NCBI GenBank assembly: GCA_900537185.1
Contig: LS999830.1
Location: 47,440-111,439 of the forward strand
Origin: Cytophagales bacterium Alg240-R148
GTDB taxonomy: Bacteria; Bacteroidota; Bacteroidia; Cytophagales; Cyclobacteriaceae
Length of the DNA: 64,000 nucleotides
Reading direction: 5' to 3'
Part shown: positions 28,080-45,939 of the stretch, one piece after another
How the letters are laid out: each line of letters opens with the position of its first letter
How positions within the stretch are numbered: position 1 is the first letter of the stretch
The notes under the pieces: generated by a model
What the model was told of the DNA's origin: nothing
The model's input: the letters and a program-made list of their open reading frames with translations, nothing else
Databases searched by the model: none
Translations under genes and position numbers: made by a program

Positions 28080-28083
28080 GGCG

Positions 28084-28902
28084 TTATAGTAGTTGTGCTA
28101 GTTTTGTTTGAATGTCTTGTATTTGGTTTTCTAAAATCATAACCTTTTCTTCTAACATTTTAGGAGGGTTTAAATAGGTGCTAAAGGCACCCTTAACAAC
28201 CCAAAGTTCGGTAATTTCCTTTACAACAAATGTTTTGTCCTGGTAATTGGGGTCGTCACAAGCAAATATTAATTCTTTTTTGCCCACCTGTTTGAGCCTT
28301 TTGGTGGTAATGTCCTCTTTGTCGACTATTACATAAACTGCTCCTTCTTGTAGTTGCTCGGCTAGGACGTCCACATGTTGGCACAATAGAATGTCGCCAT
28401 GGTGCAATCCATTTTGGTGGTATTCCATTTCACTGCCATTCAACTCAAAAGCCCTGCTGTTGCCTTTGAAATTTACAGGTAATTGAATGCTAGGCAAGTT
28501 GTTTATGAAATCTTTACTCTTGTAATTAACAATGTATTCTATGTAGTAATCTTCCTTCACCAAGTGGATGCCGCCCACCTTGTCTGCCTTTTTTATCTCT
28601 GTCTTGAAATGGTGGGCTTGGTCCATTTTCTGATTGAGAATATTGAAATGATAAAGTTCGTTTGTAGATAATTCCTTACTTAACAAAATGTCAATTGACA
28701 AGCCAAAATAATTAGCCATTTGAATAATAGTCTCAATTTTAGGTTCAGCTCTTCCTTCTTCATAAGCCCCAACACTACCTCTGTTTAGATCGAAAATTTC
28801 CGCTAATTTAGCCTGACTGAGCTTTTTAGCTGTTCTTATCTTCTTTATATTTTTACCTATGTGTGACATAATTTTAAAATTAATTGCTAATTTTTTTTGC
28901 AA
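28084..28902 (-). CDS. XRE-family HTH transcriptional repressor fused to an S24 (LexA/CI-like) autopeptidase domain
   Basis: - N-terminal HTH_XRE ('KKIRTAKKLSQAKLAEIFDLNRGSVGAYEEG').
- The C-terminus aligns with the LexA catalytic region: 'NGSEME...GDILLCQH' matches 'KGDSMI...GDLLAVH' (Ser) and 'TTKRLKQVGKKELIF' matches 'VTVKRLKKQGNKVELL' (Lys). Confidence 0.7.
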   Translation of the reverse strand: MQKKLAINFKIMSHIGKNIKKIRTAKKLSQAKLAEIFDLNRGSVGAYEEGRAEPKIETIIQMANYFGLSIDILLSKELSTNELYHFNILNQKMDQAHHFKTEIKKADKVGGIHLVKEDYYIEYIVNYKSKDFINNLPSIQLPVNFKGNSRAFELNGSEMEYHQNGLHHGDILLCQHVDVLAEQLQEGAVYVIVDKEDITTKRLKQVGKKELIFACDDPNYQDKTFVVKEITELWVVKGAFSTYLNPPKMLEEKVMILENQIQDIQTKLAQLL

Positions 28903-28922
28903 TTCTAAAACTTTTAGTAACT

Positions 28923-28936
28923 TGTTTACGTAAACA
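28923..28936. promoter_or_regulatory. perfect 14-bp palindrome TGTTTACGTAAACA; candidate operator about 20 bp upstream of the repressor start codon
   Basis: Perfect inverted repeat read directly in the divergent promoter region between the XRE-S24 repressor gene (-) and the YbjN-like/PspA locus (+). Confidence 0.4.
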
Positions 28937-29055: not shown

Positions 29056-29063
29056 TAAATTTG
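29056..29063 (+). promoter_or_regulatory. candidate Bacteroidota -7 promoter element (TAAATTTG) for the YbjN-like/PspA operon
   Basis: Matches the TAnnTTTG consensus about 43 nt upstream of the ATG at 29106. Confidence 0.25.
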
Positions 29064-29105
29064 ATAACAACAATGAAAACTTTTGTAATCAAAACATAAA
29101 CAACC

Positions 29106-29501
29106 ATGAACAATTACTTTGCTAAGGTTAAGGACTATCTAATGGACCTGGAATATGACATTTCCTATGAAAACGAAGAAGACGGTGTGATTGTGGTGGA
29201 AAGTGAATCAAATGGAATAAAAAACTTGGTCTTAGGCGTGGCAGACCCTTTGTTGATCATAGAACAATTTATATTTGAAATTCACAACCCATCTCAAGAC
29301 ATTTACAAACAACTCATGATCAAGAGCCGGGACATCATCCACGGAGCGTTTGTATTAGATGAGACAGGCTCTAAGGTTATCTTTAGAAATACACATGAAT
29401 TAGAGAATCTTGATTTGAATGAAATAGAGGCCACATTTAACTCGCTGGCTTTGTTGTTAGGGGAATACTCAAATGAATTAATCGAATTATCTGAAAATTA
29501 A
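29106..29501 (+). CDS. YbjN/DUF2170-like (T3SS-chaperone-like fold) protein
   Basis: 131-aa acidic protein. Its size and pattern ('YLMDLEYDISYENEEDGVIVVE') resemble YbjN-family proteins. It sits immediately upstream of PspA, as with E. coli yjfI-yjfJ. Confidence 0.45.
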   Translation: MNNYFAKVKDYLMDLEYDISYENEEDGVIVVESESNGIKNLVLGVADPLLIIEQFIFEIHNPSQDIYKQLMIKSRDIIHGAFVLDETGSKVIFRNTHELENLDLNEIEATFNSLALLLGEYSNELIELSEN

Positions 29502-29514
29502 ACTACATAAAAAG

Positions 29515-30237
29515 ATGAACATATTTAAAAGAATATTCAAAATAGGAGAGGCGGAAGCACATTCGGCAATTGACAAATTGGAAGATCCAATTAAATTGAC
29601 AGAACAGGGGATTAGAGACTTGAAAGCAGATTTGGATAAAAGTTTGCAGGCATTGGCCGAAGTTAAAGCCATGGGCATCCGTTCTAAGAATGAAGTGAAA
29701 ACGAACCAAAGCAAGGCTAAGGATTACGAAAATAAGGCCATGTTGTTGCTTAAAAAAGCCGAATCTGGCGATATTTCTGCATCCGAGGCCGATCGTTTGG
29801 CCAGTGAGGCATTAGTAAAAAAGGCCGAGCATGAAGGCCACACGGCAAGAGCCAAAGAAGAACAAGATCGCTTTGAAAAAAATGTTTCGCAGTTAGATAC
29901 CAACGTTAAGAGAATTCGTTCTACCATATCCCAATATGAAAACGAATTAAAAACGTTGAAGGCCAGGGTAAAAGTGAGTTCTGCAACTAAAAAGTTGAAC
30001 AAACAAATGGCCCAAATCGATGGGTCGAGCACTGTGTCGATGTTGGAAAGAATGAAGGAAAAGGTAGCTGAAGAAGAAGCATTGGCTGAATCTTATGGCG
30101 AAATCGCGAACGAAAGCAAGTCTGTAGACGACGAAATTGACAAGGCGTTAGAAGGTGGTGTGGCAGAAGCCAGTGCCGCAGATAGTTTGGCCGCTTTAAA
30201 AGCCAAATTGAATAAAGATAAAAACAAAGAGGAGTAG
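29515..30237 (+). CDS. PspA/IM30 (Vipp1/LiaH) family membrane-stress protein
   Basis: N-terminus 'MNIFKRIFKIGEAEAHSAIDKLEDPIKL...' followed by a long coiled-coil. 240 aa. This is the canonical PspA/IM30 architecture. Confidence 0.85.
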   Translation: MNIFKRIFKIGEAEAHSAIDKLEDPIKLTEQGIRDLKADLDKSLQALAEVKAMGIRSKNEVKTNQSKAKDYENKAMLLLKKAESGDISASEADRLASEALVKKAEHEGHTARAKEEQDRFEKNVSQLDTNVKRIRSTISQYENELKTLKARVKVSSATKKLNKQMAQIDGSSTVSMLERMKEKVAEEEALAESYGEIANESKSVDDEIDKALEGGVAEASAADSLAALKAKLNKDKNKEE

Positions 30238-30278
30238 TCCTCTTTGTTTACCCAAAACTTAAACTTTAAATAACTACT

Positions 30279-30908
30279 ATGAAAGAATTGTTTGAAGCGG
30301 CTATGGCTTCCTATAACATTGCACCAACTTTTTTAATGCTATTTGTGTCTTTTTATTGGATCATAGTCATGTTTGGAGCAATAGATATGGATGCCTTGGA
30401 TATAGACATTGATTTGGATGCAGATTTGGACGCAGACGCAGATGTCGAAATCGGAGGAGTGGCTTCAACGCTTTCATTTTTTAACATAGGGCACATGCCC
30501 TTTATGGTGTTTTTAAGTTTTTGGGCATTGCCAGTATGGGTCATTGCCATATTGTCCAACCATTACCTAGGGAATACCAGTTTGCTGATAGGCCTGGCTT
30601 TGTTAATTCCCAATTTTATTGTGTCATTATTTGTTGCAAAAATACTGACCACCCCCATTGCCAAATTTTTTATGAAACTCAAAAGGGAAGATGAAGCAGT
30701 CCGCCCAGTTGGTAAAATGTGCACCGTGATATTACCAATTGTGGAAGACAAAATAGGTCAAGCCGAAATCAAAGTTAACGGAACTTCGGTTTTAATCAGT
30801 GCCAAAACCAAAGATGGCTCCAGCATGCTAAAAGGAGATACTGCCTTGGTTATTGAGCATCAGAAGGAAAAAAATATATTCATAATTGAATCATACTCAA
30901 CAAAATAA
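30279..30908 (+). CDS. NfeD-like (YqiJ-like) membrane protein with a C-terminal OB-fold domain
   Basis: TM helices, an acidic 'DIDIDLDADLDADADVEIGG' stretch, and a C-terminal beta-rich block 'GQAEIKVNGTSVLISAKTKDGSSMLKGDTALVI'. It is immediately upstream of a flotillin gene. Confidence 0.6.
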   Translation: MKELFEAAMASYNIAPTFLMLFVSFYWIIVMFGAIDMDALDIDIDLDADLDADADVEIGGVASTLSFFNIGHMPFMVFLSFWALPVWVIAILSNHYLGNTSLLIGLALLIPNFIVSLFVAKILTTPIAKFFMKLKREDEAVRPVGKMCTVILPIVEDKIGQAEIKVNGTSVLISAKTKDGSSMLKGDTALVIEHQKEKNIFIIESYSTK

Positions 30909-30917
30909 CTAATTCAA

Positions 30918-33083
30918 ATGATAGAGAATCTTGGAATAATAGGTCTTATTTTTATAGTCGGAGTAACATTTGCGTTGCTGGTAATGCTTGCTAGGATGTA
31001 TAGGAAAGCGCTACAAGGAGAAGCCTTGGTCAAAACGGGTTTTGGAGGCACAAAAGTGAATTTTAACGGCATGATAGTACTTCCGGTTATTCATAAATTA
31101 GAAGTAATGGACATTACGGTTAAAACCATTGTAATTTCCAGAACAGCCAGTGATGGCCTGGTTTGTAAAGACAACATGCGAGCCGATATAAAAGTAACTT
31201 TCTTTGTAAGGGTTAACCAAACCCATGAAGATGTCAAACAGGTAGCACAGTCCATTGGGTGCCACCGTGCATCGGATCAGGTGGCATTAGAAGGGTTCTT
31301 TGATGCTAAATTTTCAGAAGCCCTTAAAACGGTAGGTAAGCAGTTTGATTTTGTAGAATTGTACAACTCAAGAGATGACTTCAAAACGCAAATTTTGAAC
31401 ATTATTGGTACCGATTTGAACGGATATGTATTGGACGATTGTGCCATTGATTATTTGGAACAAACGCCTATGAGTTCTATGAATGAAGACAACATCTTGG
31501 ATTCAGAAGGTATTAAAAAAATCATTCAATTAACATCGGAGCAAAAAATTCAATCCAACTTAATCCAAAGGGAAAAAGAGAAAACCATTACCAAGCAAGA
31601 TGTGGAAGCACGAGAAACGGTATTGGAATTGGAAAGGCAGTTGGCAGAGACAGAAGCCAAACAAAGAAGAGAAGTGCACTCGGTACAAGCACGTGAAGAA
31701 GCAGAAACCGATAAGGTAAGGGAAGAAGAACGTTTGAAGGCCGAAAGGGCCAGAATAACAACAGAAGAGGAACTACAGGTGGCCGAAGAGAACAAACTAA
31801 GAGAAGTTGTCATTGCTCAGAAAAATAAAGAACGGGCCGATGCGGTGGAAACAGAAAGGGTGCAACAAGCCCAAATGTTGGAAGCAACTGAAAAGGAGAA
31901 ACTCGTAGCTTTGGCTCAAATATCAAAGGAGAAGGCTTTAGAAGAGGAGCGCAAAAACATACAAGATGTAATAAGAGAGCGGGTTTCAATAGAAAAAACT
32001 GTGGTGGAAGAAGAGGAAAGTATGAAGAACATCAAGGCCTTTTCTGAAGCAGACAGAACTAAGAAAGTAGCGATTACTTTGGCGGAAAAAGATGCAGAAG
32101 AGGCATTAGTGAAAGAGATTAAGAGTGCTGAAGCAGCAAAGAATGCTTCGGAACACTTGGCTAAAAAAATACTTATCGATGCCCAAGCAGAAGAAACTGC
32201 TGCCGTGCATTTAGCAGAATCTAAGAAAACTATGGCAGATGCACAAGCCTCAGAAGCAGCAGCTATTGGGATGTCGGAGGCGCAAGTAATGGAAGCCAAA
32301 GCAGCGGCCTTAGAAAAAGAAGGGGATGCGCAAGCGTCTGTTATTGAAGCCAAAGCAGAGGCTGAAGCAAAAGGCATTGCCATGAAAGGCGAAGCAGAAG
32401 CACAAGCCAACGAGAAAAAAGGATTTGCGGATGCTAAAGTGAACAAAGAAAAAGGAGAAACTGAAGCGCATATCATCGACATTACGGCAGACGCCGAAGA
32501 AAAAAGAGGATTGGCAGAAGCCAAAGTGATGGCAGAGAAATTCTCAGCCGATGCAGAAGGCATCAAGGAGAAAGCCAACGCAATGAAGCAGTTGGATGGA
32601 GTAGGCCAGGCCCACGAAGAGTTTAAGCTGAAGTTGGCCATGGAGAAAGAAGTTGAATTGGCACGCATCGAAATTCAAAAAGAAATTGCAGAAGCACAAG
32701 CCCATGTTATCTCAGAAGCACTTAAAGCAGCCAATATTGATATCGTAGGAGGAGAGACCATGTTCTTTGACCAAATTGTTGGTTCCATCACAAAAGGTAA
32801 ATCAGCAGATCGTCTGGTGCAAAGCAGCGAAGTACTCACCGATGTCAAGGACACTTTCTTTTCAACCGAAACTGGGGGCAACTTTAAAGACAAACTAAGG
32901 CAATTTGTGGATCAATTTGGAGTATCAACGGAAGATGTTAGAAACTTGAGCATCTCTGCTTTGTTACTGAAACTAACCAGCCAAGCAAACGATGAAGGTT
33001 CTCGGGGTGTGTTGAAACAATTGGGTGTATTGGCCGAGTCGTTGGGCATCTCAGGAAACCCTGCAAGTAGTTTAGGCTTATAA
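30918..33083 (+). CDS. flotillin-family (SPFH/band-7, YqiK-like) protein with a long E/A/K-rich coiled-coil
   Basis: N-terminal TM, SPFH core ('VKTIVISRTASDGLVCKDNMRADIKVTFFVRV'), then about 350 aa of EA-repeat coiled coil. Confidence 0.8.
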   Translation: MIENLGIIGLIFIVGVTFALLVMLARMYRKALQGEALVKTGFGGTKVNFNGMIVLPVIHKLEVMDITVKTIVISRTASDGLVCKDNMRADIKVTFFVRVNQTHEDVKQVAQSIGCHRASDQVALEGFFDAKFSEALKTVGKQFDFVELYNSRDDFKTQILNIIGTDLNGYVLDDCAIDYLEQTPMSSMNEDNILDSEGIKKIIQLTSEQKIQSNLIQREKEKTITKQDVEARETVLELERQLAETEAKQRREVHSVQAREEAETDKVREEERLKAERARITTEEELQVAEENKLREVVIAQKNKERADAVETERVQQAQMLEATEKEKLVALAQISKEKALEEERKNIQDVIRERVSIEKTVVEEEESMKNIKAFSEADRTKKVAITLAEKDAEEALVKEIKSAEAAKNASEHLAKKILIDAQAEETAAVHLAESKKTMADAQASEAAAIGMSEAQVMEAKAAALEKEGDAQASVIEAKAEAEAKGIAMKGEAEAQANEKKGFADAKVNKEKGETEAHIIDITADAEEKRGLAEAKVMAEKFSADAEGIKEKANAMKQLDGVGQAHEEFKLKLAMEKEVELARIEIQKEIAEAQAHVISEALKAANIDIVGGETMFFDQIVGSITKGKSADRLVQSSEVLTDVKDTFFSTETGGNFKDKLRQFVDQFGVSTEDVRNLSISALLLKLTSQANDEGSRGVLKQLGVLAESLGISGNPASSLGL

Positions 33084-33280
33084 ACTTGATTTACAGCAGA
33101 AATAATTGAACTGTAAAACTGCGCATGCGCAAACATGAAACAACTCCCGGTGATGGCCGGCACCACTGGGAGTTTGTATAGTCCTCAAGGTTTTGAGGTA
33201 TCAGGAGGCAGCCATTCAAATAAGTTGAATTGAGCTGGCTTTACACAGGAAGTATTTTTAACCGTCTAAAACTCATTGTT

Positions 33281-33502
33281 ATGAAATCTGACGTTCAAAT
33301 ACACCACCAAGCCAAGATTATGATGGCCGTGTTGGTATTGTGTTTTCCTTTGTTGCTCGGGTCGGCTTTTGTACTCAAAAATGACAGTTTGGTGTCATCC
33401 AAACGCAAAAAGGAACACGTTGATAAATACAGTGGTTATGCCGCAATAATTTGCAGCAGCCCACTCGCTTTTTTAATCACAAAGAAAAAACTCGCAAAGT
33501 AA
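33281..33502 (+). CDS. small two-TM membrane protein (73 aa) directly upstream of the giant ATPase. Its stop is 1 nt before the ATPase start codon.
   Basis: Internal-Met start MKSDVQIHHQAKIMMAVLVLCFPLLLGSAFVL, with hydrophobic spans. The longer ORF from 33230 is less likely. Confidence 0.35.
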   Translation: MKSDVQIHHQAKIMMAVLVLCFPLLLGSAFVLKNDSLVSSKRKKEHVDKYSGYAAIICSSPLAFLITKKKLAK

Positions 33503-33503
33503 T

Positions 33504-36500
33504 ATGTCCGAAGACCAATCAACACATAAAGATCAACATTTAGAAGGTGGTACGTATGAAGTACTACAAACCAGGTTGCAAGCGAGCAGCCAAAAGCTTC
33601 GAGATCAGTTGAACTTGCTAAATGATGATCGGAAGAAAGTTTTTGGATCGATTGAAACGGCTCTTTCAGGAACAGAAAGGGTAACTACGGAACACAATTG
33701 TATACCATGGGACATGGTGCCCATTGGCAAACAATTTATTTTCGGATACAATGTTCATATTGGTTTAAAAACTGAAACTACCGTAGAGGATGTCTTTTCT
33801 GTATACCGGTATGAAGACCATGTATTCCATAAAGAATCGATGGATCTGGTTAATAATGCGACGTTCTACGAGGATTTTCAGAAACTTTATAAATATTATA
33901 AAAACACCCATTTTGTTCGCTTCGCTGAAAGGGGCAATAACCTTTTTATGGTTTTTAGAATTGGAAAAGATGTAGCCGATATAAAAACCTTTAAATGGGA
34001 AGTGCAGGGTAGTAAATTGGTATACAAGGGCAATCGAAGCGACCATGAATTTGAGTACCCAGCGCAATTTGATTTCGAATGGAAAAAATGTACCAGAGAG
34101 AATTACAGAGAAGGCCGGTTTTCTCATATCTCGATCGAAAATAAAGTGTTTGTAGAAACTCTGGGTGGCGATTTAACCATTAAAATTGAGGACAATACCG
34201 ATTCTGGGAAGGGTATTTATAGTGAGCCTGTAGACCACAAAGACCAAACATTGGACGATGCCGAAGTGTATTACTCTGTTTTGGGCAATGTGATTTTACT
34301 TAAAATAAGGCCATATCAAGAACTACCACGTTTTTTTGTGTTTAATTCTAAATTAGGAGAAGCCAAAAGAATAGATGAATTAAAAGACTCTTGTATTTTA
34401 TTGCCAGACGACCACGGCATTATTTTTACAAACGGCTACTATTTGCAAACTGGTGAATTCAAAAAGTTTGAAAACGATTTGGAAAGCATGATGTTCGAAA
34501 AGCGCATTGCAGCACCAAATGGTGAGGATTACTTGTATATTTTTTACAATAGATTGTCTGGAACTTATTTGCTTTTGCATTATAATTTAATTGCACAAAA
34601 AGCAGAAAATCCTACCATTTGCCACGGGTATTCTATTTTCGAAAATGGAGAAATGTGTTTGTTCAGAGCAGATGAAGAACAAAAGAAACACCACGCCATT
34701 CAAATATGGCAAACGCCTTATACTGGAGCAGATTATCAGGCAGATACGAGCCATGATTCATATTTGTTTAAAATTGGCAACAAAGACATTGTTAGGGCCA
34801 TGGCAGAATGCCATGAAATACTGACCCTTATTGGCAAGGAAGATTCTTATGCCAATTTGTACCTTGATTTAATCAAACAAGCACAAGACATTCTAGACAG
34901 CTACCATTGGTTGGCCAAAAAAGAAGTGCACCAGGTCAACATTCCTTTGGTGGAGATCAAAGATACTGCCGAATTGGCCGTAGAGGAGTTTGAAAAGGTA
35001 ATCAAAATAAAACAAAATACTTCTCAGAAAATTGCAACTGTTTCTGAAATGGCAGAAACGTTGATTAAAAACATTAAAAAAACTCGAGCCAAATCGATCA
35101 ACGATTATGTATTGAATTTGGCTGAATTGAGAAAGGTAAGAGGCGAAGTAATCTCGTTAAAAGAACTGCGGTATACGGACTTTGAACTAATCGAACAGTA
35201 TGAAAGACAACTAAAAGAATTCAACGACACTACGTCGCAAAAGTGCGTGTCCTTTTTACTGAAAGAAGAAGCTTTGCAGCCTTATGCAGAAAAAGTAGAA
35301 GAGCTCAATCAAAACATAGAAGCAGTTGCGAAGGTAATTGATGCTGATAAAACGGAAGAAAACATCAACCAAGTAGCAGGAGAATTGGAAATGTTGATTG
35401 ACATTGTAGGCAACCTGGATATTGAGGATGCTACGCAGACTACTAAAATAATAGACAACATATCAGAAATTTATGCCCACTTTAACCAACTGCGCGCTGC
35501 GCTTAAAAAGAAACGCAAAGAACTGCTCGGTGTAGAAGGCAAGGCTGCTTTTAATGCACAAATGAAGTTAGTAGACCAGGGCATTATCAATTATTTGGAT
35601 GTTTGTGATACACCTGAGAAATGCGATGAGTTTCTAACAAAACTGATGGTGCAATTAGAGGAATTGGAAGCAAAGTTTTCTGAATTCGACGAATACATAG
35701 AAAAAATATCGGTTAAAAGAGAAGATATTTACAATGCGTTTGAAAATAAAAAGCTGAACCTAGTAGAAGCAAAAAACAAACGCGCTAATAATTTATTAGA
35801 GGCTGCCAACAGAATTATTAAGGCCATTCAAAGCCGTCTATCTCGTTTTACTACTGTAAAAGAGATTAATGGTTATTTTGCAGCAGATGTAATGATTGAA
35901 AAAGCACGTTCCATTATTTCAGAATTGGAAGAGATGGGCGATACAGTCAAATCAGAAGATATTCGCAGCCGATTAAAAACTGCAAAAGAAGATGCAGTAA
36001 GACAATTAAAGGACAAATCTGAGCTCTATGTAGAAGGGGCCAATATTATCAAGTTTGGTAAACATCAATTTACCGTCAATACCCAGTCCCTGGATCTGAC
36101 CATCGTTAACAAGGGCGAAAACATGTATTTTCATTTAACAGGTACCAATTTCTTTGAACCCATTCAAGACGAAGAATTTACTTCTTTGCGCCATGTGTGG
36201 GACCAGCAATCGGTGTCTGAAAACGATGAGATTTACAAGGCAGAATACTTGGTGTACCAATTGTACAAAGCCATGGAAGCCAAAGAATTGGAACACACGT
36301 TGGATTCCCTCTTTAATGCAACAGAAGAAGAAATTCAAGACCTTGTGTCGCAGTTTATGTCGGTACGTTTTAATGAGGGGTATGTAAAAGGAGTACACGA
36401 CTACGATGCTGCGCTGTTGTTTAGGGCGCTGATCAACATTGTTCATTCGGCCGATTTGTTGCGTTTCTCAAGTAGATCAAGGGCTTTAGCGGCAATGTGG

Positions 36501-38420: not shown

Positions 38421-38556
38421 TGTTGTAAAAATTGGGTTGTTGCTGGTGCTCTTAATTCTGGTGTTCAACTTTGTGTTCAAACTGGTGTTTAAAATTGGTC
38501 TGATCGTACTAATTGTATTAGGAATACTATATTTATTGAAGAAGGTAGCTAATTAA
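38413..38556 (+). CDS. unannotated 47-aa hydrophobic (two-TM) peptide. It overlaps the ATPase stop by 8 nt and ends 3 nt before the next gene.
   Basis: Translates to MSDVVKIGLLLVLLILVFNFVFKLVFKIGLIVLIVLGILYLLKKVAN. It is tightly packed between two genes with no room for a promoter or terminator. It falls below the ORF-track length cutoff. Confidence 0.35.
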   Translation: MSDVVKIGLLLVLLILVFNFVFKLVFKIGLIVLIVLGILYLLKKVAN

Positions 38557-38559
38557 TAA

Positions 38560-40131
38560 ATGAGGTACGTAGTTGGTTTTGTAATAGTGGTTTTCTGTTT
38601 AATAAATGCTGTATTTGCACAAGATATAGATAAAGATCCAATGTCATTTTGGAATTCAAAGCAAATTTTATTGGATAAGGGGCAATACGTGCAAAACCAA
38701 GATCTAATTGAAATTAGAAAGTTGCAGGACGAATTGAACAACAAATATAAAATTGACTTTCGTTTTATTGTTTCCTCTAAATGGAGTAGTGAAGTTAAAA
38801 AGGAACACAAAAAGTATATGGCCAAAAAAACGCTGGATAGAAGCAAAGTATATATGTTGGCCGTTGTTAGTATGGAGGAGGGACTTGTAGAATTGTACTG
38901 TTCCAATATTAATAAAGTGAACTTATTAGGTCCAGTAAATAGAATGTCACGCAGTTTTATAGAGGAGAATCTTAAAAAAGAACATAGTGCTTCTCTTGGA
39001 AAAGGCATTATATGGTTCCTATCTGCATTGGTTAAAAGCGGTAATTTGGATGCGGAATTTAATAAAAAAGAAGAAGCACTGTATGAGGAATACCTTAAAG
39101 GATATGATTTGTATAGATATTTCTATTTCTTTTGTTTGTTTTTTATCATTTGGCATAATAGGGGCTTAATTCTGCATTTTAAACACTATGGTTACAAGAT
39201 CGATGCCTACCCTTTAACTAGGTTGCCTGTTTTTTTTAGGAATTTTTTATGGTTAATCAATACTATTATAATTTATTGGGTTGCGTATAATAATGGCTAT
39301 TTTTACAACAATTTCGAACTTGCAATTGTAATTTTTTTGTTTGTCTCGGTTCCAGTTTATTATTTTAATATTACTTTTCTTTGTTTTATAACAGATCTGA
39401 TAGTTGTTTCAAGACAACCATTAAAACGGGATATTTCTAAAAACCTGTATCCTGCGGAGGTAAAACTGCTAATTAACCACAAAACCCCTGCCATAGAGAT
39501 GTTGGAGGCTCAGTTTTTTGAGTTGGTTTTAAACAACATATTGGTAATTGAGCCGCATGAAAAGTTGTACAAGAACGGAACTTGCAAACGCTATTTCTTG
39601 GTATGTCGGGGAGAAGAATTTGAAAACCACCCGAGTACTAAAATAGAAGAACCTTTTGTGTCGATTTTAAGAAATTTGGAACCAGGTGAGGGGATTTATT
39701 TCACCCACTACATCAACGCCGTTTTTAAAAATATACGAAGTTTAAAAACTTTTAAATACAACTTTGTGGCTAAGTCATTGGTTGAAAAGGGGTATATCAA
39801 CCCTTATCTATGGGCTTTTGGTATAATAAAAGTGAAAAATAAAGCACTTGCCTTTAAAAAAGACTACAAGCAGGTCAAAACTGAAGTAGGACTGAAAATT
39901 GAGAAGTCTTTGGAATCGGTTGTTAAGAATGCTTCAATACTAATAATTCTAGATAGTTTTACGAGTAGAATAAACCAAGCAAAAATAACAAATGCTGTAA
40001 CAATAGAAGGGGATCGGAGTAGCTTAAAATATCTAATCAATACAAATTTTGATTTTGAATCCATTGCTGCATTGTTTAAAAATACAGGGCCTGGGGAGTT
40101 CAAAGCTAATAAATGGCCAGGTACCTATTAA
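38560..40131 (+). CDS. membrane protein with an N-terminal secreted TPM-like domain, a multi-TM core and a C-terminal cytoplasmic domain
   Basis: Signal peptide. The N-terminal about 170 aa are TPM-like ('DFRFIVSSKW...'), followed by Phe/Tyr-rich TM helices. 523 aa. Confidence 0.4.
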   Translation: MRYVVGFVIVVFCLINAVFAQDIDKDPMSFWNSKQILLDKGQYVQNQDLIEIRKLQDELNNKYKIDFRFIVSSKWSSEVKKEHKKYMAKKTLDRSKVYMLAVVSMEEGLVELYCSNINKVNLLGPVNRMSRSFIEENLKKEHSASLGKGIIWFLSALVKSGNLDAEFNKKEEALYEEYLKGYDLYRYFYFFCLFFIIWHNRGLILHFKHYGYKIDAYPLTRLPVFFRNFLWLINTIIIYWVAYNNGYFYNNFELAIVIFLFVSVPVYYFNITFLCFITDLIVVSRQPLKRDISKNLYPAEVKLLINHKTPAIEMLEAQFFELVLNNILVIEPHEKLYKNGTCKRYFLVCRGEEFENHPSTKIEEPFVSILRNLEPGEGIYFTHYINAVFKNIRSLKTFKYNFVAKSLVEKGYINPYLWAFGIIKVKNKALAFKKDYKQVKTEVGLKIEKSLESVVKNASILIILDSFTSRINQAKITNAVTIEGDRSSLKYLINTNFDFESIAALFKNTGPGEFKANKWPGTY

Positions 40132-40149
40132 AATTAATATAGGAAGAAA

Positions 40150-40854
40150 ATGAAAATACGGTTTAGTTTGTTTTTAATTTTAGCTTGTACATCTCTGCAT
40201 TTGCTGGGGCAAAAATTGGTGGTCGATCCACCGGCTTTAATACATGAAACAGATAAAAAGGAAATTAATGGAGCAATAAATCAAATTAGAGAGACCCATG
40301 GTATGGATGTGGCAATATGGGTTCGCGATTCTTTTGAAGTAGACATTAGTAATGAAAACAGGGAATTAATCAAAACCATATTGGATGTAAACCTGTATCT
40401 TAATGAAATGTTGGTGTTGGTAGACATGAGCAACAAACGTGCACAAGTATTAATCGGAAGACTCGACAGATTTGGATCCAAAGTTGATGTTTACCAATTA
40501 AATAGGAATTACCTATTATCCAACTTCCAAGAAACCAATTCTGTTTCAATGGGTAAAGCATTGTTCTGGATGTTAGAAGGGTTAGACAAAGAACTGAAGT
40601 TGGCCCAGTCTGTTGAAGCACAAATCATTGAGGAAGATTCTTCCTATGGCAGAGATTTTTGGAACTTTTTGTATCTTCTTCTCCCTTTTTTGCTGTTAAT
40701 TCTAGCTAGCAACTTTTACAGGTTGGCAACAAAAAATAAAGATGGTAATCGTTTAAACCTAAATTCGACTTATGGCATGAATACTTCCGTCAAAATAGCA
40801 TTGTGCATAACATTGTTATTTATTACTGGCTTTTTTGTTTTTATTTTGTTTTGA
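40150..40854 (+). CDS. TPM-domain (TLP18.3/Psb32/MOLO-1 family) protein with a C-terminal TM anchor
   Basis: Signal peptide. 'VVDPPALIHETDKKEINGAINQIRETHGMDVAIWV' resembles the TPM-domain N-terminus. C-terminal TM helices. Confidence 0.5.
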   Translation: MKIRFSLFLILACTSLHLLGQKLVVDPPALIHETDKKEINGAINQIRETHGMDVAIWVRDSFEVDISNENRELIKTILDVNLYLNEMLVLVDMSNKRAQVLIGRLDRFGSKVDVYQLNRNYLLSNFQETNSVSMGKALFWMLEGLDKELKLAQSVEAQIIEEDSSYGRDFWNFLYLLLPFLLLILASNFYRLATKNKDGNRLNLNSTYGMNTSVKIALCITLLFITGFFVFILF

Positions 40855-41088
40855 ACCTTGTGTATAGTACCCCAATTAGTTGTTTTTGGCTATTATGCCC
40901 TATTGGGTTGACTGTATATATTAAAAACAAACGATACAAAGGAAGTGCCGTTGGTGGTGCAAAAATTGTTGCAAATCCAAGGATTTCGGGATATGAATTG
41001 TGTGAAGTTCAATTTATGCAAATGCTAAAGGAAAATAAAGTTGGTTTATCATTGGTTTGAAAATAGATTAGGAGTGCACAAATACGAA

Positions 41089-41643
41089 ATGCGATTAACC
41101 AAAGGGGATAATTTTAGATTGGATGAAGAAGATTACCTGGAATATGTAATGCTGTCCTTTTTTAAGGATATTGAGGAAGAAGGAGTGGGCTATTATCCAG
41201 AACGATATTTTGAGCATTTACTTGAACATTTTGGAAGCTTTAAAACCTTTAAAAAACACTATGTTGGAGAATATGCAGTTACCCACGGTTGGATAAATAA
41301 AATATCTTGGTTGGCCAATTGGTATGTGGTAACGGACAAAGGAAAAGAACAACTCGGCGCTATAAAACTAAGGAAGAACAAAATGCAAAATTTGATGCAC
41401 AGGTTGAAAAATGAATCAAAATTTGAGGCTTTGAGAGAATTATCAGCGGATGTTGTGTTATTGGATGGATTTCATGGAAACGGTTGGTTCAATGATTTCG
41501 TTAAACTAATTAAAACGCATTCCTTGGATTGGATCAATGAAATAAACCTAGCAATGTTGTTCCAATATGAATTTCAATTTGCTTTTTTTGACGATTACTT
41601 TTATGACACTAGATTGGTTCTAGAATTAGAACCGGAGGAATAA
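41089..41643 (+). CDS. hypothetical cytoplasmic protein. An ATG start was chosen; the ORF track used an upstream TTG at 41041.
   Basis: Co-directional ORF of about 184 aa with no recognisable motif. Confidence 0.35.
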   Translation: MRLTKGDNFRLDEEDYLEYVMLSFFKDIEEEGVGYYPERYFEHLLEHFGSFKTFKKHYVGEYAVTHGWINKISWLANWYVVTDKGKEQLGAIKLRKNKMQNLMHRLKNESKFEALRELSADVVLLDGFHGNGWFNDFVKLIKTHSLDWINEINLAMLFQYEFQFAFFDDYFYDTRLVLELEPEE

Positions 41644-41659
41644 ATAAAAAAATAAGAAT

Positions 41660-42208
41660 ATGGGACTATTTGATTTTCTAAAGAAAAAAGAAACACCAAA
41701 GTACGATGTGACCAACTTGTCTATTAAAGACTTGGATCAAGGTTTTATCTTTGATTATGACATGAAATCATGGGTGGTCAAAGAAGTGTACCAATACGAT
41801 TGGGGAAACAACAATATTTCTAAGGAATTCTTAATTGATTCTGGAGAAGAGGTTGGTTTTTTGGGTATTGAAGATAAGGGAGAGCCATGGATAACTTTCA
41901 CAAAAACCATCAAAATTAGAGATTTAGGAACGGACATCATCGATAGAACGGTGGAAGCCAAAAGCCCTCCAAAAATTTTAGTCTACCAAGCAAAGGAATA
42001 CCATTTGCACAACGACAGTGCTGGTTATTTTAATGACATAACCAAAGGAACAGACGATTGGGAAGAGCTGATTGCATGGGAGTTGTACGACGATAATGAA
42101 GAAAATTTAATAGGTATAACCCAATGGGGAGAACGAGAATTTGATGCAGTGGCAGGAGTTGTAGTTAAGGAGTTTCAAATCTCCAATATAATTCCTGGTA
42201 CTGATTAA
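41660..42208 (+). CDS. DUF4178-like protein
   Basis: 182-aa soluble protein ('MGLFDFLKKK...DYDMKSWVVKEVYQYDWG...'). It sits in the DUF4178/DUF350/aminopropyltransferase neighbourhood that is recurrent across bacteria. The family call is by recall. Confidence 0.4.
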   Translation: MGLFDFLKKKETPKYDVTNLSIKDLDQGFIFDYDMKSWVVKEVYQYDWGNNNISKEFLIDSGEEVGFLGIEDKGEPWITFTKTIKIRDLGTDIIDRTVEAKSPPKILVYQAKEYHLHNDSAGYFNDITKGTDDWEELIAWELYDDNEENLIGITQWGEREFDAVAGVVVKEFQISNIIPGTD

Positions 42209-42260
42209 TATGATAACTTTAAATTAATGGTATATTTAGGTCAAATTTTACTCTAATAGG

Positions 42261-42983
42261 ATGAAACTTAATAAATTATTCGGTTTGCTGCTGCTTCTTT
42301 TGGTAGTATCAAGCTGTGGAGAAAAAAAATACGTTAAAAATAGAATGGATGTGTTGGTACGGGACATGCCCTCCGATAGGGTGTTTTCGATACTATTAAA
42401 TGACATGGACGTATCCGGAACATTTTTTCACGAATACCACCACCAATACAAAATCATTGAAGAAAAAACGCCAGGCAAACCAGAAGAGTATACAACTGCT
42501 TGGTTCGAAGTGGATAAAAATACTTTTAACCAACATGTCAACGACATGGGCATGGAATTGATGTCCAGGGGAGAAGATGGTAAATTGGTGAAGTCAGTAG
42601 GCCCTCCAGGATACAACAACTATGTTGGCAATGAAAAATATGGCCATTGGGAAAACAGAGGTGGACATTCATTTTGGGCTTTTTACGGTCAGTACGCTTT
42701 CATGAGCAGCATGTTCCATATGATGGCCTATCCAGTCAGAAGATCGTATTACAACGACTACAGAAGGTCTTATTACGGAACAGGACGTTCCTATTACGGT
42801 CCTTCTACCAATGGTAGAACTTACTACGGTACCAATAGCAATTATACTTCTTCTACTAGGCCGAACTCCAACTGGAGTAGGAATAGGTCTTCCTTTAAAA
42901 ATCGGGTTTCTGGAAGGACCTCTAGGTCCAGTTCTAGGTATGGAAGTTCTTCTAGGTCAAGAGGGGGCGGTTTTGGCAAATAA
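42261..42983 (+). CDS. lipoprotein with an R/S/Y/G-rich low-complexity C-terminal tail
   Basis: Lipobox VVSSCG. C-terminal 'RRSYYNDYRRSYYGTGRSYYGPSTNGRTYYG...SRSRGGGFGK'. Confidence 0.5.
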   Translation: MKLNKLFGLLLLLLVVSSCGEKKYVKNRMDVLVRDMPSDRVFSILLNDMDVSGTFFHEYHHQYKIIEEKTPGKPEEYTTAWFEVDKNTFNQHVNDMGMELMSRGEDGKLVKSVGPPGYNNYVGNEKYGHWENRGGHSFWAFYGQYAFMSSMFHMMAYPVRRSYYNDYRRSYYGTGRSYYGPSTNGRTYYGTNSNYTSSTRPNSNWSRNRSSFKNRVSGRTSRSSSRYGSSSRSRGGGFGK

Positions 42984-43004
42984 TAACCTTTAAAGATTAC
43001 ATTT

Positions 43005-43871
43005 ATGTTAGAAATTTTAGATGGTATCTTGGCCACGCTAAGTTATTTAGCGGCGTCATTTGTTCTTTTTTATATCGGAAAAATCGTTTATCAGTTGTTT
43101 CATCCAAGGGTTAAAGTGGCCTACGAGTTGGTTGAAAATGATAATTTTGCATTTTCTTATGCCTATGTTGGGTATTACGTTGGGTTGTTATTGGCCATTG
43201 GCAGTGCTACCATGGGAGAAAGCAGTGGCGATTTATTGCTGGATTTAATGGACATTGGTATTTATGGTGCCTTGGCCATATTGCTTTTAAATTTGTCTAT
43301 TAAAATTAATGACAAAGTAATTTTGAATAAATTCTCCTTAAAAACAGAGATTCTAGAACAAAGGAATATTGGCTCTGGTATTGCGGAAGGAGCAGTTTGT
43401 ATTGCAACGGGTTTAATAATATTGGGTGCCATCCATGGAGAAGGACATGGTGATGGAGGGCCAATTTTAAATGCTATAGCCTATTGGTTGTTGGGCCAGG
43501 TTATAATGTTTGTTACAGCTTGGGTGTATAATTTGATCACGCCATACGATATCCACGAACACATTGCCAAACAAAACATAGCGGTAGGAGTTGGATTTGC
43601 TGGCGCAATAATATCCATAGCAATTTTAATTTCCTATGCCTTGATGCACGATTTTGAAAGTTGGGTTGTTACCTTGGAAGACGTTGGGATTGATGTATCC
43701 ATAGGCTTGGTTTTTCTGCCGTTGGTGCGGTTCATGACCGATAAAATACTTTTGCCGGGCCAAAACTTAACAGATGAAATTGTCAACCAAGAAGTTCCCA
43801 ACGTGGGAGCCGCTTTGGTGGAAGCATTTGCCTATATTGGCGGAGCCATTTTAATTACTTGGGCGCTGTAA
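43005..43871 (+). CDS. membrane protein with four tandem DUF350 (YjfL-like) repeats
   Basis: Four repeats, each carrying the hallmark N-[IV/F]-A-x-[AG] motif in a TM hairpin: NDNFAFSYAYVG, RNIGSGIAEGAV, QNIAVGVGFAGA, PNVGAALVEAFA. Confidence 0.55.
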   Translation: MLEILDGILATLSYLAASFVLFYIGKIVYQLFHPRVKVAYELVENDNFAFSYAYVGYYVGLLLAIGSATMGESSGDLLLDLMDIGIYGALAILLLNLSIKINDKVILNKFSLKTEILEQRNIGSGIAEGAVCIATGLIILGAIHGEGHGDGGPILNAIAYWLLGQVIMFVTAWVYNLITPYDIHEHIAKQNIAVGVGFAGAIISIAILISYALMHDFESWVVTLEDVGIDVSIGLVFLPLVRFMTDKILLPGQNLTDEIVNQEVPNVGAALVEAFAYIGGAILITWAL

Positions 43872-43883
43872 CCAATAAGAATT

Positions 43884-45419
43884 TTGAAATCTAATGTGTT
43901 AAAATTAGCCCTGTTTGCAACAGGGCTTTCGGGCATTGTAGGAGAATACATACTTTCTACGCTTGCCACTTACTTTTTAGGAGACTCCGTATTCCAATGG
44001 ACTATGATTGTGTCCATTATGCTTTTTGCAATGGGCTTGGGCAGTAGGTTGTCTCAATACATTAAAACAGAATTGTTGGTGAAATTCATATACATTGAGT
44101 TTACACTTTCTATTTTAACTGCATTTGTTTCCGTTCTCACTTACCTTACTTCGGCTTATTACGGATACACTGGATTTGTTATTTATGGGTTGAGCATTAT
44201 AATTGGGTTGCTCATTGGTATGGAAATTCCATTGGTAGTGCGCTTGAACGATGAATTTGAAGACCTCAGAATCAATGTGTCTTCTGTAATGGAAAAAGAT
44301 TACTTTGGAAGTTTGTTGGGTGGGATATTCTTTGCGTTCGTAGGTTTGCCTTATCTCGGTCTTACTTATACTCCATTTATCTTAGGAAGTGTCAACTTTT
44401 TGGTAGCTACTGGTTTGTTTATAATGTTAAGGGGCAATTTACCAGCATCTTCAGGCAAACAATTGAATTTGGCACTGGTCGGTACTTTTCTATTGCTTTT
44501 GGGGGGTACAGTATTTGCGGAGCGCATCATCAGCTATGGAGAGACGGCTCGATACAAAGACAAAGTGGTATACGAAGAACAAAGCAAATACCAGAAAATA
44601 GTTATAACCAAATCGAAAGAAGATTTTTGGCTTTTTATAAATGGGAACCAACAACTTTCCTCAATAGATGAGATCATGTACCACGAACCCCTGGTGCATC
44701 CGGTGATGCAACTCTCTGACCATCCACAACATGTGTTGGTGATGGGGGGAGGCGATGGTGGTGCCGTAAGGGAGATATTAAAATATCAGTCCGTTGAGTC
44801 CATCACATTGGTCGATTTGGACCCTGCCATGACCGAGTTGGGTCAAAAACATGATTTGTTGGTAGCTATGAATCAAAATGCAATGAACCACCCAAAACTG
44901 ACCATCCACAACGTAGATGGGTTCAATTTTTTGGATGACAACCAACAATATTACGATGTAATTATAGTGGATTTACCGGATCCAAAATCAGTGGAACTAG
45001 GCCGGTTGTATTCGTACGAGTTTTACAAGCTGTGTTACCGACAGCTTCGCCCTAATGGCTTGCTAATAACCCAGGCCGGTAGTCCGTATTATGCAGCGAG
45101 GGCTTTCAATTGCATTGATGCAACCATGGAGGCCGCAGGCTTTTCTACAGCACCCATACACAACCAGGTAGTCACGTTAGGCGAATGGGGGTGGGTGATT
45201 GGAGCCAAAAGTAGCAGCAAAGAGAATTTAAAAAAACAATTGCAGCAATTGGAATTTAAGGAGATCGCTACCAAATGGATCAACCAAGAAGCCATGACTT
45301 TAATTACTAGTTTTGGAAAAAAAGTGTTTATAGAAGATGGTATGGAGGTGGAAATCAATAAAATTCACAACCCAGTGTTGTATCGTTATTATTTGAACGG
45401 AAAATGGGATTTGTATTGA
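43884..45419 (+). CDS. speE: membrane-fused polyamine aminopropyltransferase (spermidine/spermine synthase-like) with an N-terminal domain of about 7 TM
   Basis: C-terminal half 'HVLVMGGGDGGAVREILKY...ITLVDLDPAMTELG...YDVIIVDLPDP' matches the SpeE SAM-binding GGGDGG and proton-acceptor D motifs. The N-terminal 200 aa are polytopic membrane. Confidence 0.75.
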   Translation: MKSNVLKLALFATGLSGIVGEYILSTLATYFLGDSVFQWTMIVSIMLFAMGLGSRLSQYIKTELLVKFIYIEFTLSILTAFVSVLTYLTSAYYGYTGFVIYGLSIIIGLLIGMEIPLVVRLNDEFEDLRINVSSVMEKDYFGSLLGGIFFAFVGLPYLGLTYTPFILGSVNFLVATGLFIMLRGNLPASSGKQLNLALVGTFLLLLGGTVFAERIISYGETARYKDKVVYEEQSKYQKIVITKSKEDFWLFINGNQQLSSIDEIMYHEPLVHPVMQLSDHPQHVLVMGGGDGGAVREILKYQSVESITLVDLDPAMTELGQKHDLLVAMNQNAMNHPKLTIHNVDGFNFLDDNQQYYDVIIVDLPDPKSVELGRLYSYEFYKLCYRQLRPNGLLITQAGSPYYAARAFNCIDATMEAAGFSTAPIHNQVVTLGEWGWVIGAKSSSKENLKKQLQQLEFKEIATKWINQEAMTLITSFGKKVFIEDGMEVEINKIHNPVLYRYYLNGKWDLY

Positions 45420-45474
45420 AGCCACGGCAATTGTAACTTTTATAGAATACTTCAATAAAATAAAAATACGCTAC

Positions 45475-45939
45475 ATGGGACTTGAAATAGAAAGAAAATT
45501 TTTATTAAAAAATGACAACTGGAAAATAGAAGGTTTGGAGTCCGTTTTTATGCAACAGGGGTATTTGAACTCTTACAAAGAAAGAACGGTAAGGGTTAGA
45601 ATAGCAGGAGATTTGGGTTTTTTAACCATCAAAGGTAAAACTATAGGGCTAACACGAAAGGAGTTCGAATACAGTATTCCTTTAATAGATGCCCAGAGTT
45701 TGATGCAGATGTGTGAACAACCTACAATTGAGAAAACTCGTTTCATAAAAAAGGATCGGGGTAATGTTTGGGAAATAGATGTGTTTTATGGTGAAAATGA
45801 GGGATTGGTTCTAGCCGAAATTGAACTAGAAAATGAAAACCAAACCATCGATTTGCCCACATGGGTAGGAAAAGAAGTATCCTCTGACCCCAAATACTTT
45901 AATGCTTCCTTAATTGCAAATCCTTATAAAAACTGGTAA
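45475..45939 (+). CDS. CYTH-domain protein (CyaB/ThTPase-like triphosphate tunnel metalloenzyme)
   Basis: N-terminal 'LEIERKFLL' (ExExK signature). 154 aa with a beta-rich pattern. Confidence 0.7.
   Translation: MGLEIERKFLLKNDNWKIEGLESVFMQQGYLNSYKERTVRVRIAGDLGFLTIKGKTIGLTRKEFEYSIPLIDAQSLMQMCEQPTIEKTRFIKKDRGNVWEIDVFYGENEGLVLAEIELENENQTIDLPTWVGKEVSSDPKYFNASLIANPYKNW

Follow-up and report, generated by a model that had tools for sequence, protein, structure and literature searches.

A PspA-centred locus of Cytophagales bacterium Alg240-R148 that joins a YqiJ-flotillin-AAA+ module to a membrane-bound spermine synthase-like module

A stretch of 64,000 nucleotides (nt) of DNA from Cytophagales bacterium Alg240-R148 (Bacteroidota, Cyclobacteriaceae; GenBank assembly GCA_900537185.1, contig LS999830.1, positions 47,440 to 111,439 of the forward strand), referred to below as the window, contains a gene array built around PspA, a member of the bacterial ESCRT-III superfamily. 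In a prediction made from the sequence alone the array was described as a membrane-stress, or possibly defence, locus of sixteen consecutive plus-strand genes, starting with a YbjN-like gene and pspA and ending with a CYTH gene. A continuous run of plus-strand open reading frames (ORFs) was indeed found from 29106 to 45939. Junctions were short, from -52 to +55 nt, except in front of the gene for a very large AAA+ ATPase, where the gap was 197 nt to a doubtful ORF of 90 amino acids (aa) or 420 nt to the ATPase start. The number of sixteen was too high, because three of the ORFs make up one gene (40150-41643) and the 90-aa ORF is doubtful. The features of the locus are collected in Table 1, with Pfam assignments judged against the curated cut-offs. 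The genes for YqiJ, flotillin and the ATPase are called module A in the following, and the genes from the 47-aa membrane peptide to the SpeE-like enzyme module B. For comparison, 80 loci around homologs of the ATPase (51-67% identity) were taken from GTDB species representatives and screened with all proteins of the window; single loci are given by L numbers where they have to be told apart.

Table 1. Genes and sequence elements of the PspA-centred locus; positions are those of the window.
Feature	Position	Strand	Length	Evidence and remarks
Soluble single-HKD PLD-family protein	27402..28079	-	225 aa	PLDc_2 9.5e-30; HxK...D...GSxN motif
Predicted LexA-paralog repressor	28084..28869	-		HTH_3 1.4e-12; Peptidase_S24 24.2 bits; degenerate S24; C-terminal coiled coil
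LexA-type box of tandem pair, CTAATTTTTTTTG	28887-28899			One mismatch; regulator promoter
LexA-type box of tandem pair, CTAAAACTTTTAG	28905-28917			Exact CTAA-N5-TTAG; regulator promoter
Perfect palindrome, TGTTTACGTAAACA	28923..28936		14 nt	CGTAAA core conserved beside the boxes in orthologous loci (by eye)
Candidate Bacteroidetes-type -7 box, TAAATTTG	29056..29063	+		43 nt upstream of the chaperone gene; same sequence in L002 and L083 (Roseivirga)
Degenerate box-like sequence, TGAAAACTTTTGTAA	29074-29088			After TAAATTTG
CesT/Tir-like (YbjN-related) chaperone	29106..29501	+	131 aa	Pfam CesT_Tir_1 (PF22550) 1.7e-52, 177 bits
PspA/IM30 (bacterial ESCRT-III superfamily)	29515..30237	+	240 aa	PF04012 PspA_IM30 2.1e-45
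Stem-loop of 12 bp across pspA stop codon, no U-tract	30222..30249	+		-16.2 kcal/mol; local control mean -8.1
YqiJ/YuaF-type membrane protein	30279..30908	+	209 aa	Profile of 59 orthologs against full-length E. coli YqiJ 1.1e-13
YqiK-type flotillin	30918..33083	+	721 aa	Transmembrane (TM) segment, SPFH/band-7, long coiled coil, C-terminal domain
DUF3686 + DUF7902 + single AAA+ ATPase	33504..38420	+	1638 aa	Pfam DUF3686 2.4e-183
Membrane micro-peptide, two predicted TM segments	38413..38556	+	47 aa	Start overlaps ATPase stop by 8 nt
First TPM/TM protein	38560..40131	+	523 aa	Signal peptide, divergent TPM domain, TM segments, conserved cytoplasmic domain
Second tandem TPM/TM copy, in three ORFs	40150..41643	+		Two frameshifts; pseudogene or assembly error
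DUF4178 cytoplasmic beta-rich protein	41660..42208	+	182 aa	Pfam 8e-14
Lipoprotein	42261..42983	+	240 aa	Signal peptide ending VSSC; Ser/Arg/Tyr/Gly-rich tail
Double-DUF350 (YjfL-type) polytopic membrane protein	43005..43871	+	288 aa	Pfam DUF350 1.5e-56, two stretches
7TM + spermidine/spermine-synthase-like aminopropyltransferase	43884..45419	+	511 aa	Spermine_synth 1.8e-42, GGGDGG intact
CYTH protein	45475..45939	+		Pfam CYTH 6.3e-16, 59 bits; EIERK motif

The run is headed by the chaperone gene and pspA. Orthologs of the chaperone gene were located immediately 5' of pspA in 17 loci and also in L083, L085, L086 and L090. The PspA of the window matched PF04012 from residue 2 to residue 232 with a score of 155.5 bits (cut-off 33.9), and it matched E. 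coli YjfJ in BLASTP with an E-value of 4e-8. The stem-loop found across the pspA stop codon was not peculiar to the window. A comparably exceptional hairpin was present at the pspA stop in 9 of 21 loci, where about two were expected, and the hairpin sequence itself was not conserved. This recurrence suggests that CesT and PspA are expressed differently from the genes downstream, and the stem-loop is a candidate attenuator or processing signal which may uncouple the CesT-PspA level from that of the later genes.

Divergent from the chaperone gene lies a regulator gene, which had been called LexA-like from the sequence. This was borne out by the HTH_3 and Peptidase_S24 domains of its product, both above their cut-offs, and by its position: it stands divergent from CesT-PspA in 18 of the 80 loci and in L083, L085, L086 and L090. 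No Bacteroidota locus with CesT-PspA was without it. The regulator ORF extends to a TTG at 28902. Homologs align only from ORF residue 7-13, so the true start is probably the ATG at 28869. The protein aligned over its full length, coiled coil included, with a validated set of Bacteroidetes LexA proteins, and on the same alignment the idea that the gene encodes the SOS LexA was rejected. The sequence GSEM is found in place of GDSM, with Glu at the position of the nucleophilic Ser, and in at least 21 of 23 orthologs examined this position is occupied by E, D or A; Ser was seen only in L014. The KASAGY cleavage region is replaced (…VKEDYYIEY…) and the Ala-Gly site is missing. The general-base Lys is retained in the window regulator and is Arg in most orthologs. 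On these alignments the regulator is a LexA paralog without self-cleavage residues, and it is putatively autoregulated through LexA-type boxes.

The operator CTAA-N5-TTAG has been demonstrated for the non-canonical LexA of Bacteroidetes by electrophoretic mobility shift assay (Sanchez-Osuna et al., NAR 2021). The likeness of the window regulator to this LexA includes the HTH_XRE, S24 and C-terminal coiled-coil architecture and the presence of the operator, often in tandem, in the gene's own promoter. The differences are the GSEM sequence, the lost Ala-Gly site and the linkage to CesT-PspA instead of to repair genes. Several genera carry two 'L2' paralogs according to the same authors, and one of these may be the counterpart of the window regulator. 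In most of the orthologous loci a pair of boxes was found with a spacing of about 18 bp, one lying about 18 nt and the other about 36 nt from the regulator start, and the exact CTAA-N5-TTAG was found at the equivalent place in nine loci. In Hymenobacter the boxes have drifted to CTCA...TGAG, and in Rufibacter and Nibribacter to CTAC...GTAG. Four further exact matches in the window (1724, 13059, 38509 and 43038) are all inside ORFs, and the total of five against 1.4 expected is not decisive. The palindrome TGTTTACGTAAACA next to the boxes may be a promoter element or a second operator.

The Bacteroidetes -7 consensus is TAnnTTTG, and the candidate box upstream of the chaperone gene follows this pattern. 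A scan for sigma-70 promoters and terminators, a promoter type which is wrong for this phylum, gave counts no higher than those expected from shuffled sequence. Neither Rfam nor tRNA scans gave a match in the window.

The gene for the PLD-family protein begins 4 bp downstream of the regulator gene and is probably transcribed together with it. It adjoins the regulator gene in five other loci from Roseivirga, Agaribacillus, Rufibacter and Nibribacter (L002, L007, L008, L038 and L083). Members of the family were also found inside the YqiJ-flotillin-AAA+ operon of two Planctomycetes loci (L027 and L033) and beside a PspA homolog in L042. The protein may be of the nuclease or the cardiolipin-hydrolase type.

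Module A begins 3' of the stem-loop. The original prediction had named its first two genes as NfeD and flotillin, the partners known from E. coli yqiJK. Only the flotillin could be retained. NfeD (PF01957) gave no match in the first protein even at E-values up to 5, and the SPFH partner belongs to the YqiJ family instead, as seen with the profile of its orthologs (Table 1). The single sequence matched YqiJ in BLASTP with 4e-6, and its match to YqiJ_N (0.012) was below the cut-off. The flotillin itself was easily missed. Full-length searches in Pfam, NCBIfam and PDB sequences showed no SPFH match, and the Pfam Flot model for the C-terminal part was not detected; taken alone, these negatives would have spoken wrongly against a flotillin. 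The matter was settled when the N-terminal 233 aa were scanned alone (Band_7 1.6e-12, 48.3 bits) and the protein was compared with YqiK of E. coli MG1655 (BLASTP, 30% identity over 438 aa, E 1.5e-48). The full-length searches were falsely negative, with the long Ala/Glu/Lys-rich coiled coil as the probable cause, and this calls for caution in automated annotation.

The spacer of 420 nt between flotillin and ATPase genes (33084-33503) contains hairpins at about 33144-33172 and 33183-33198 and an ORF of 73-90 aa with a hydrophobic segment. In its 90-aa form (33230-33502) this ORF had been counted as one of two tiny TM peptides of the array. No sequence conservation was observed for it, and Roseivirga has an unrelated 82-aa ORF in the same place. 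The length of the gap varies among relatives, with a median of 240 nt and up to 3 kb.

The ATPase was confirmed as a 1638-aa protein with a single AAA+ domain, which follows DUF3686 and DUF7902 by Pfam. Among 15 homologs no variation was seen in Walker A (GYGKTT), in Walker B (YLDDIQ) or in the candidate sensor-1 Asn and Arg residues, and 4656 homologs were found at E-values of 1e-10 or better. An AlphaFold model of the C-terminal 449 aa (residues 1190-1638) had a pLDDT of 72. An attempt to assign the ATPase to an AAA+ clade by Foldseek failed, as only generic AAA+ folds were matched (Lon, Cdc48, NorQ, RuvB, MCM and Vps4), with TM-scores of about 0.25. DUF3686 was named in no paper of the literature searched.

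NCBI and Pfam name DUF3686 proteins 'DNA repair ATPase', and together with the Bacteroidetes LexA box in the regulator promoter this name could be taken to mean that the locus is an SOS or DNA-repair operon, in which DNA damage cleaves the repressor and induces a repair ATPase. Of all explanations considered this one is the least credible. The regulator and nearly all of the orthologs examined are without the catalytic Ser, and the Ala-Gly site is absent from the window regulator. No DNA-binding or nuclease domain was detected in the ATPase by Pfam, and all conserved partners are membrane proteins. PspA, flotillin, YbjN, phospholipase and the ATPase are not listed among the regulated genes in the SOS-regulon paper of Sanchez-Osuna et al. 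or its supplements. Nothing supports the database label, and the DUF3686 proteins are mislabelled.

The second tiny TM peptide that had been predicted proved to be conserved. Homologs of the 47-aa peptide follow the ATPase gene in L001, L002, L003 and L083 and precede the TPM/TM gene in L085, L086 and L089. It is likely to be a real micro-protein overlooked by automated annotation, and the 8-nt overlap points to translational coupling with the ATPase.

Next to it, two TPM-domain membrane proteins had been proposed, and this was upheld at the level of the family. The first TPM/TM protein had no Pfam match of its own, and a word-indexed search of 5.8 billion proteins returned only the protein itself. 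An exhaustive HMMER search of 1.84 billion representatives resulted in nine distant relatives, which are 461-586 aa long. Pfam TPM was matched by five of the ten family members (best 4.6e-36), and the family profile matched the solved TPM protein BA41 with 2.6e-9, which identifies the first protein, indirectly and at family level, as a divergent TPM protein. The N-terminal ORF of the second copy gave 16.8 bits with Pfam TPM, under the cut-off of 22.1, and its N-terminus is paralogous to that of the first protein (3e-6). The TPM/TM family is very rare. An earlier idea, that these genes were an orphan insertion since none was seen in the 80 ATPase-anchored loci and the word-indexed search gave no relative, was dropped after the exhaustive HMMER search and look-ups of gene context.

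The second copy was broken. On the family profile of about 536 positions, the ORFs at 40150-40854, 40803-41060 and 41041-41643 correspond to positions 33-249, 247-336 and 333-522 in frames 0, +2 and 0. The three ORFs tile consecutive parts of the profile, and they are therefore a single gene, a paralog of the first, interrupted by two frameshifts. Both frameshifts are within 40750-41060; the second is near short A-runs (ggaaaataaag) and the first is not at a homopolymer. Two tandem TPM/TM copies are also present in the closest related metagenome-assembled genome (MAG). The GC content of 38001-42000, across the micro-peptide and TPM/TM genes, was 0.32-0.35 compared to 0.38-0.42 in the neighbouring DNA. 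This fits fast-evolving membrane genes, and no other sign of recent transfer was found.

In the rest of module B, the predicted DUF4178 protein and the 7TM-fused spermidine/spermine-synthase-like enzyme (SpeE-like below) were both confirmed by Pfam, and DUF4178, DUF350 and the TM-fused Spermine_synth were all above the Pfam cut-offs and syntenic in eight related loci. The DUF4178 gene was syntenic in L002, L003, L010, L083, L086, L087, L089 and L090. The lipoprotein was matched by no Pfam model and was 58-67% identical to the products of syntenic genes. The double-DUF350 protein matched E. coli YjfL with an E-value of 2e-6. The gene for the SpeE-like enzyme is the last conserved gene of the array, with 59-73% identity in all SpeE-bearing loci. 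In Roseivirga it is followed by a gene for a DUF3592 protein and then by a convergent polyamine cluster, and in L090 an amine oxidase gene follows directly. The convergent cluster (L083 19975-24980 and L090 13348-17503) contains an amine oxidase, a 362-aa protein, a second Spermine_synth gene and an ion channel.

The CYTH domain at the end of the predicted array is real, but its gene is not a member of the operon. None of 88 related loci contained a CYTH gene; the SpeE-like gene is followed there by other genes, and the CYTH, esterase and alpha/beta-hydrolase genes downstream in the window are absent from every related locus. The co-inheritance of CYTH with the rest, which a neighbourhood analysis had been meant to test, was not observed in related loci. 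In E. coli MG1655 (3190000-3200000) the CYTH-family triphosphatase gene ygiF is located about 5 kb from yqiJK, which recalls the CYTH gene beside the window locus but is probably a coincidence. Taken over the whole array, the profile searches upheld the PspA, flotillin, DUF350, SpeE and CYTH assignments and did not uphold NfeD.

The gene neighbourhood was conserved in two separable parts. Flotillin and YqiJ genes were found beside the ATPase gene in 69 and 60 of the 80 loci, respectively, and the triad occurs in five phyla (Bacteroidota, Planctomycetota, Verrucomicrobiota, Desulfobacterales and Calditrichia); the linkage proposed for the giant ATPase is in this way widely kept. In eight of the 11 loci without a flotillin match the upstream DNA is shorter than 3 kb. 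The triad is preceded by regulator, CesT and PspA genes in 17-18 loci, all of them from Bacteroidota (Roseivirga, Agaribacillus, Rufibacter, Nibribacter, Hymenobacter, Tunicatimonas, Cyclobacteriaceae, Owenweeksia, Parvicellaceae and Sphingobacteriales). The series DUF4178-lipoprotein-DUF350-SpeE follows the ATPase gene only in Roseivirga (L002, L083 and L084) and in L003 and L010, and in the closest MAG the merged arrangement is divided over two contigs (L001 and L087). The TPM family is co-inherited as well. In five of six sampled contexts of relatives of the first TPM/TM protein the order was CesT-PspA, an ORF of about 50 aa, TPM/TM, DUF4178, lipoprotein, DUF350 and SpeE, with an HTH_3(-S24) gene divergent and without the triad. 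Module B alone follows regulator, CesT and PspA in L085, L086 and L090. Identities to the window in such triad-less arrays were 69-77% for CesT, 68-82% for PspA and 47-56% for the regulator. Compared to these arrays, the window looks like the same operon with YqiJ, flotillin and ATPase genes inserted between pspA and the micro-peptide gene.

All ORFs of at least 120 aa between 29.1 and 62.7 kb are on the plus strand. Co-directionality therefore says nothing about the right boundary of the locus, which is set by synteny at 45419. The conserved extent is about 27402-45419, with the CYTH gene outside. Modules A and B each occur separately elsewhere. The same long co-directional run would be expected if independent units (CesT-PspA, YqiJ-YqiK, AAA+ and TPM...SpeE) had been placed one after another on the leading strand by chance, as an accident of a small clade. 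The hairpin after pspA, the large and variable gap before the ATPase gene and the separate occurrence of the modules in most genomes, with no merged form seen outside the window, Roseivirga, L003, L010 and one MAG, agree with such an origin. It is nevertheless considered unlikely. In other Bacteroidota either module by itself comes immediately after the same regulator-CesT-PspA head, the merged form has the triad exactly between pspA and the gene for the conserved 47-aa peptide, and the junctions within module B and around the ATPase stop are only -8 to +52 nt.

Both halves of the locus are known. Ravi, Anantharaman, Aravind, Gennaro et al. (mSystems 2024, PMC11237479) described 'two novel overlapping genomic associations' of PspA, and since the giant AAA+ protein is part of their description, the array is not the uncharacterised module that it had been taken for. 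Their first association consists of CesT/Tir-PspA, YqiJ/YuaF, band-7/flotillin and a beta-propeller/coiled-coil AAA+ protein, sometimes with a PLD/HKD hydrolase, and its archetype in their Table S3 is a species of Bacteroidota, Dokdonia donghaensis ANH61663.1, '<-cHTH+Protease CesT_Tir -> ... AAA-ATPase'. Gene content and order of 29106-38420 agree with this class: the chaperone gene is directly upstream of pspA with a 13-nt junction, and the divergent cHTH+Protease gene and the optional PLD/HKD gene match as well. In the ATPase, DUF3686, DUF7902 and AAA were detected and an AAA+ fold was modelled. The window operon differs in that it continues into the second class. S24, LexA and DNA damage are not mentioned in the text of PMC11237479, and the regulator is not discussed there; here it is shown to be a LexA paralog which has lost the self-cleavage residues and kept the LexA-type boxes.

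The second association of Ravi et al. is an operon with six or seven genes, for CesT/Tir-PspA, 7TM-spermine synthase, YjfL/DUF350, Ctha_1186 lipoprotein and DUF4178, with Shewanella oneidensis SO_3765 as the archetype. In the window, genes for DUF4178, a lipoprotein whose tail is of low complexity, DUF350 and a TM-fused Spermine_synth protein lie next to one another. The window lipoprotein is the positional equivalent of 'Ctha_1186', and lipobox, low-complexity tail and position agree. The gene order of the Shewanella operon is other than that of the window, whose CesT belongs to PF22550 and not to DUF2170 and which has no RHH regulator. The Bacteroidota version contains the micro-peptide and the TPM/TM pair in addition, and in the window its CesT-PspA pair is shared with the flotillin-AAA+ module. 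The novelty lies in the merger of the two classes, in the recurrent membership of the micro-peptide/TPM-TM pair and in the kind of protein that acts as the regulator.

The likeness to E. coli yqiJK and yjfIJKLMC, on which the original prediction had drawn, extends to YqiK, YqiJ, YjfJ and YjfL. It does not extend to the remaining yjf genes. The chaperone gene is not a DUF2170 gene: its product gave a marginal 10.5 bits with YjfI (DUF2170) and belongs to a different CesT/Tir family. Counterparts of YjfK (DUF2491), YjfM (DUF1190) and the ATP-grasp ligase YjfC were not detectable in the window. The polyamine enzyme of the window is an aminopropyltransferase. In E. coli, yqiJK and yjfIJKLMC are unlinked and no giant ATPase is present.

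The only experimentally studied relative found was the six-gene 'biofilm-associated cluster' bacABCDEF of P. aeruginosa (PMC10948618), which starts with the CesT-like BacA (DUF2170) and the PspA homolog BacB. Loss of BacA caused a 6-13-fold increase in the other Bac proteins, which makes BacA negative on its operon, and bacA or bacB mutants were impaired in biofilm formation, rhamnolipid secretion and virulence. A paper cited in PMC10948618 is quoted for the finding that a B. subtilis SPFH protein is required for the link between PspA and the membrane. The bac cluster has a sigma-54 promoter, in contrast to the LexA-paralog repressor of the window.

A defence function had been suggested for the locus. 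In such an anti-phage island a CI/LexA-like repressor would control the giant ATPase and a nuclease-like PLD/HKD effector, and PspA and flotillin would protect or sacrifice the membrane. The single-HKD PLD protein beside a phage-repressor-like gene and the large AAA+ protein fit this picture, and PADLOC 2.0 gave weak similarities, with E-values of 4.5e-4 and 4.5e-3, to mad8 and TRIP13 in their P-loop parts. These belong to a group of weak hits (E 4e-4 to 8e-3) to generic P-loop and coiled-coil regions; the ATPase part is the generic ATPase core, and no model specific for a defence system was matched. Position and gene order of the locus are kept from family to family and from phylum to phylum, and its distribution is not patchy. 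No GC anomaly besides the AT-rich TPM genes was seen, there is no tRNA or mobile-element gene nearby, and the partners are membrane and polyamine proteins. A role in defence is for these reasons highly improbable.

The evidence supports the PspA-centred membrane-stress locus of the original prediction, in a more precise form. The preferred explanation, given a probability of about 0.7, is that the locus is a composite membrane-maintenance system of PspA, the bacterial ESCRT-III protein, in which one CesT-PspA pair heads modules A and B; the mechanism is inferred. The non-cleavable repressor would control the divergent promoter region, and its relief would come from some signal that does not act by RecA-stimulated self-cleavage. 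The chaperone could keep PspA soluble or could restrain expression of the operon, and the stem-loop after pspA would leave CesT and PspA in excess over the remaining gene products. Flotillin and YqiJ may form a membrane platform by which PspA is brought to membrane that is damaged or curved. The AAA+ ATPase could remodel or recycle PspA or flotillin assemblies in a Vps4-like manner, and module B might tune polyamines, or aminopropylate another substrate, at the membrane or envelope.

Several points weigh against this explanation. The account of the Bacteroidota members is drawn from sequence and gene order. The gap of 197-420 nt with hairpins before the ATPase gene, variable in relatives, makes separate transcription units possible. 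The LexA-type boxes abut the regulator start and are about 140 nt from the candidate promoter of the chaperone gene, so that repression of the operon by the regulator is read from the conserved divergent pairing. The low Foldseek scores and a Walker B with DD and not DE leave the clade of the ATPase unassignable, and the analogy with Vps4 comes from gene context only. BacC-F of P. aeruginosa may be likened to YqiJ, flotillin, AAA+ and PLD proteins, by gene number and by the description of Ravi et al.

A further proposal concerns the regulator and is put forward with considerable doubt. The dead LexA paralog might be the dedicated repressor of the CesT-PspA systems of Bacteroidota in both operon classes, with a non-proteolytic release. 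Because it still reads a LexA-type operator, the true LexA might compete with it for the boxes or occupy them together with it in some lineages, that of the window among them. Release could be due to binding of the CesT-like chaperone, PspA or a lipid-derived signal by the degenerate S24 domain, and could be likened to the partner switching of PspA and PspF. If this were true, membrane stress on the one hand and DNA damage or prophage induction on the other would both lead to membrane repair by ESCRT-III, flotillin and the AAA+ ATPase.

Repair by PspA/ESCRT-III is well studied in Proteobacteria and Firmicutes and is experimentally untouched in Bacteroidota. In the composite membrane-maintenance locus described here a single chaperone-PspA pair is connected both to a flotillin/AAA+ module and to a membrane-embedded polyamine module, which makes the locus a natural construct of compact size. 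It is a good place to ask whether PspA is recycled in bacteria by a Vps4-like ATPase, and in what way polyamines come into the repair of the envelope. The regulator appears to be a clean case of a LexA-family protein that has become a non-cleavable repressor and still uses the SOS operator code, and it offers an entry point to how CesT-PspA systems are switched on. The annotation of the region is corrected by the frameshifted gene, the conserved micro-peptide and the exclusion of CYTH from the array.

The locus is flanked by genes of other kinds. Just past the PLD gene a plus-strand pair at 26039-27405 encodes a SatD-family HTH protein and a DUF3307 membrane protein, neither of which is kept near the locus in relatives. 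Downstream, a run of plus-strand genes at 48285-60017 is apparently unrelated to the locus. It encodes an HTH_3 protein, a GNAT acetyltransferase, two SAM methyltransferases, a DUF4272 protein, a TPR/HEAT protein and a fatty-acid hydroxylase, and includes a NYN + OST-HTH/LOTUS protein at 51572-52336.

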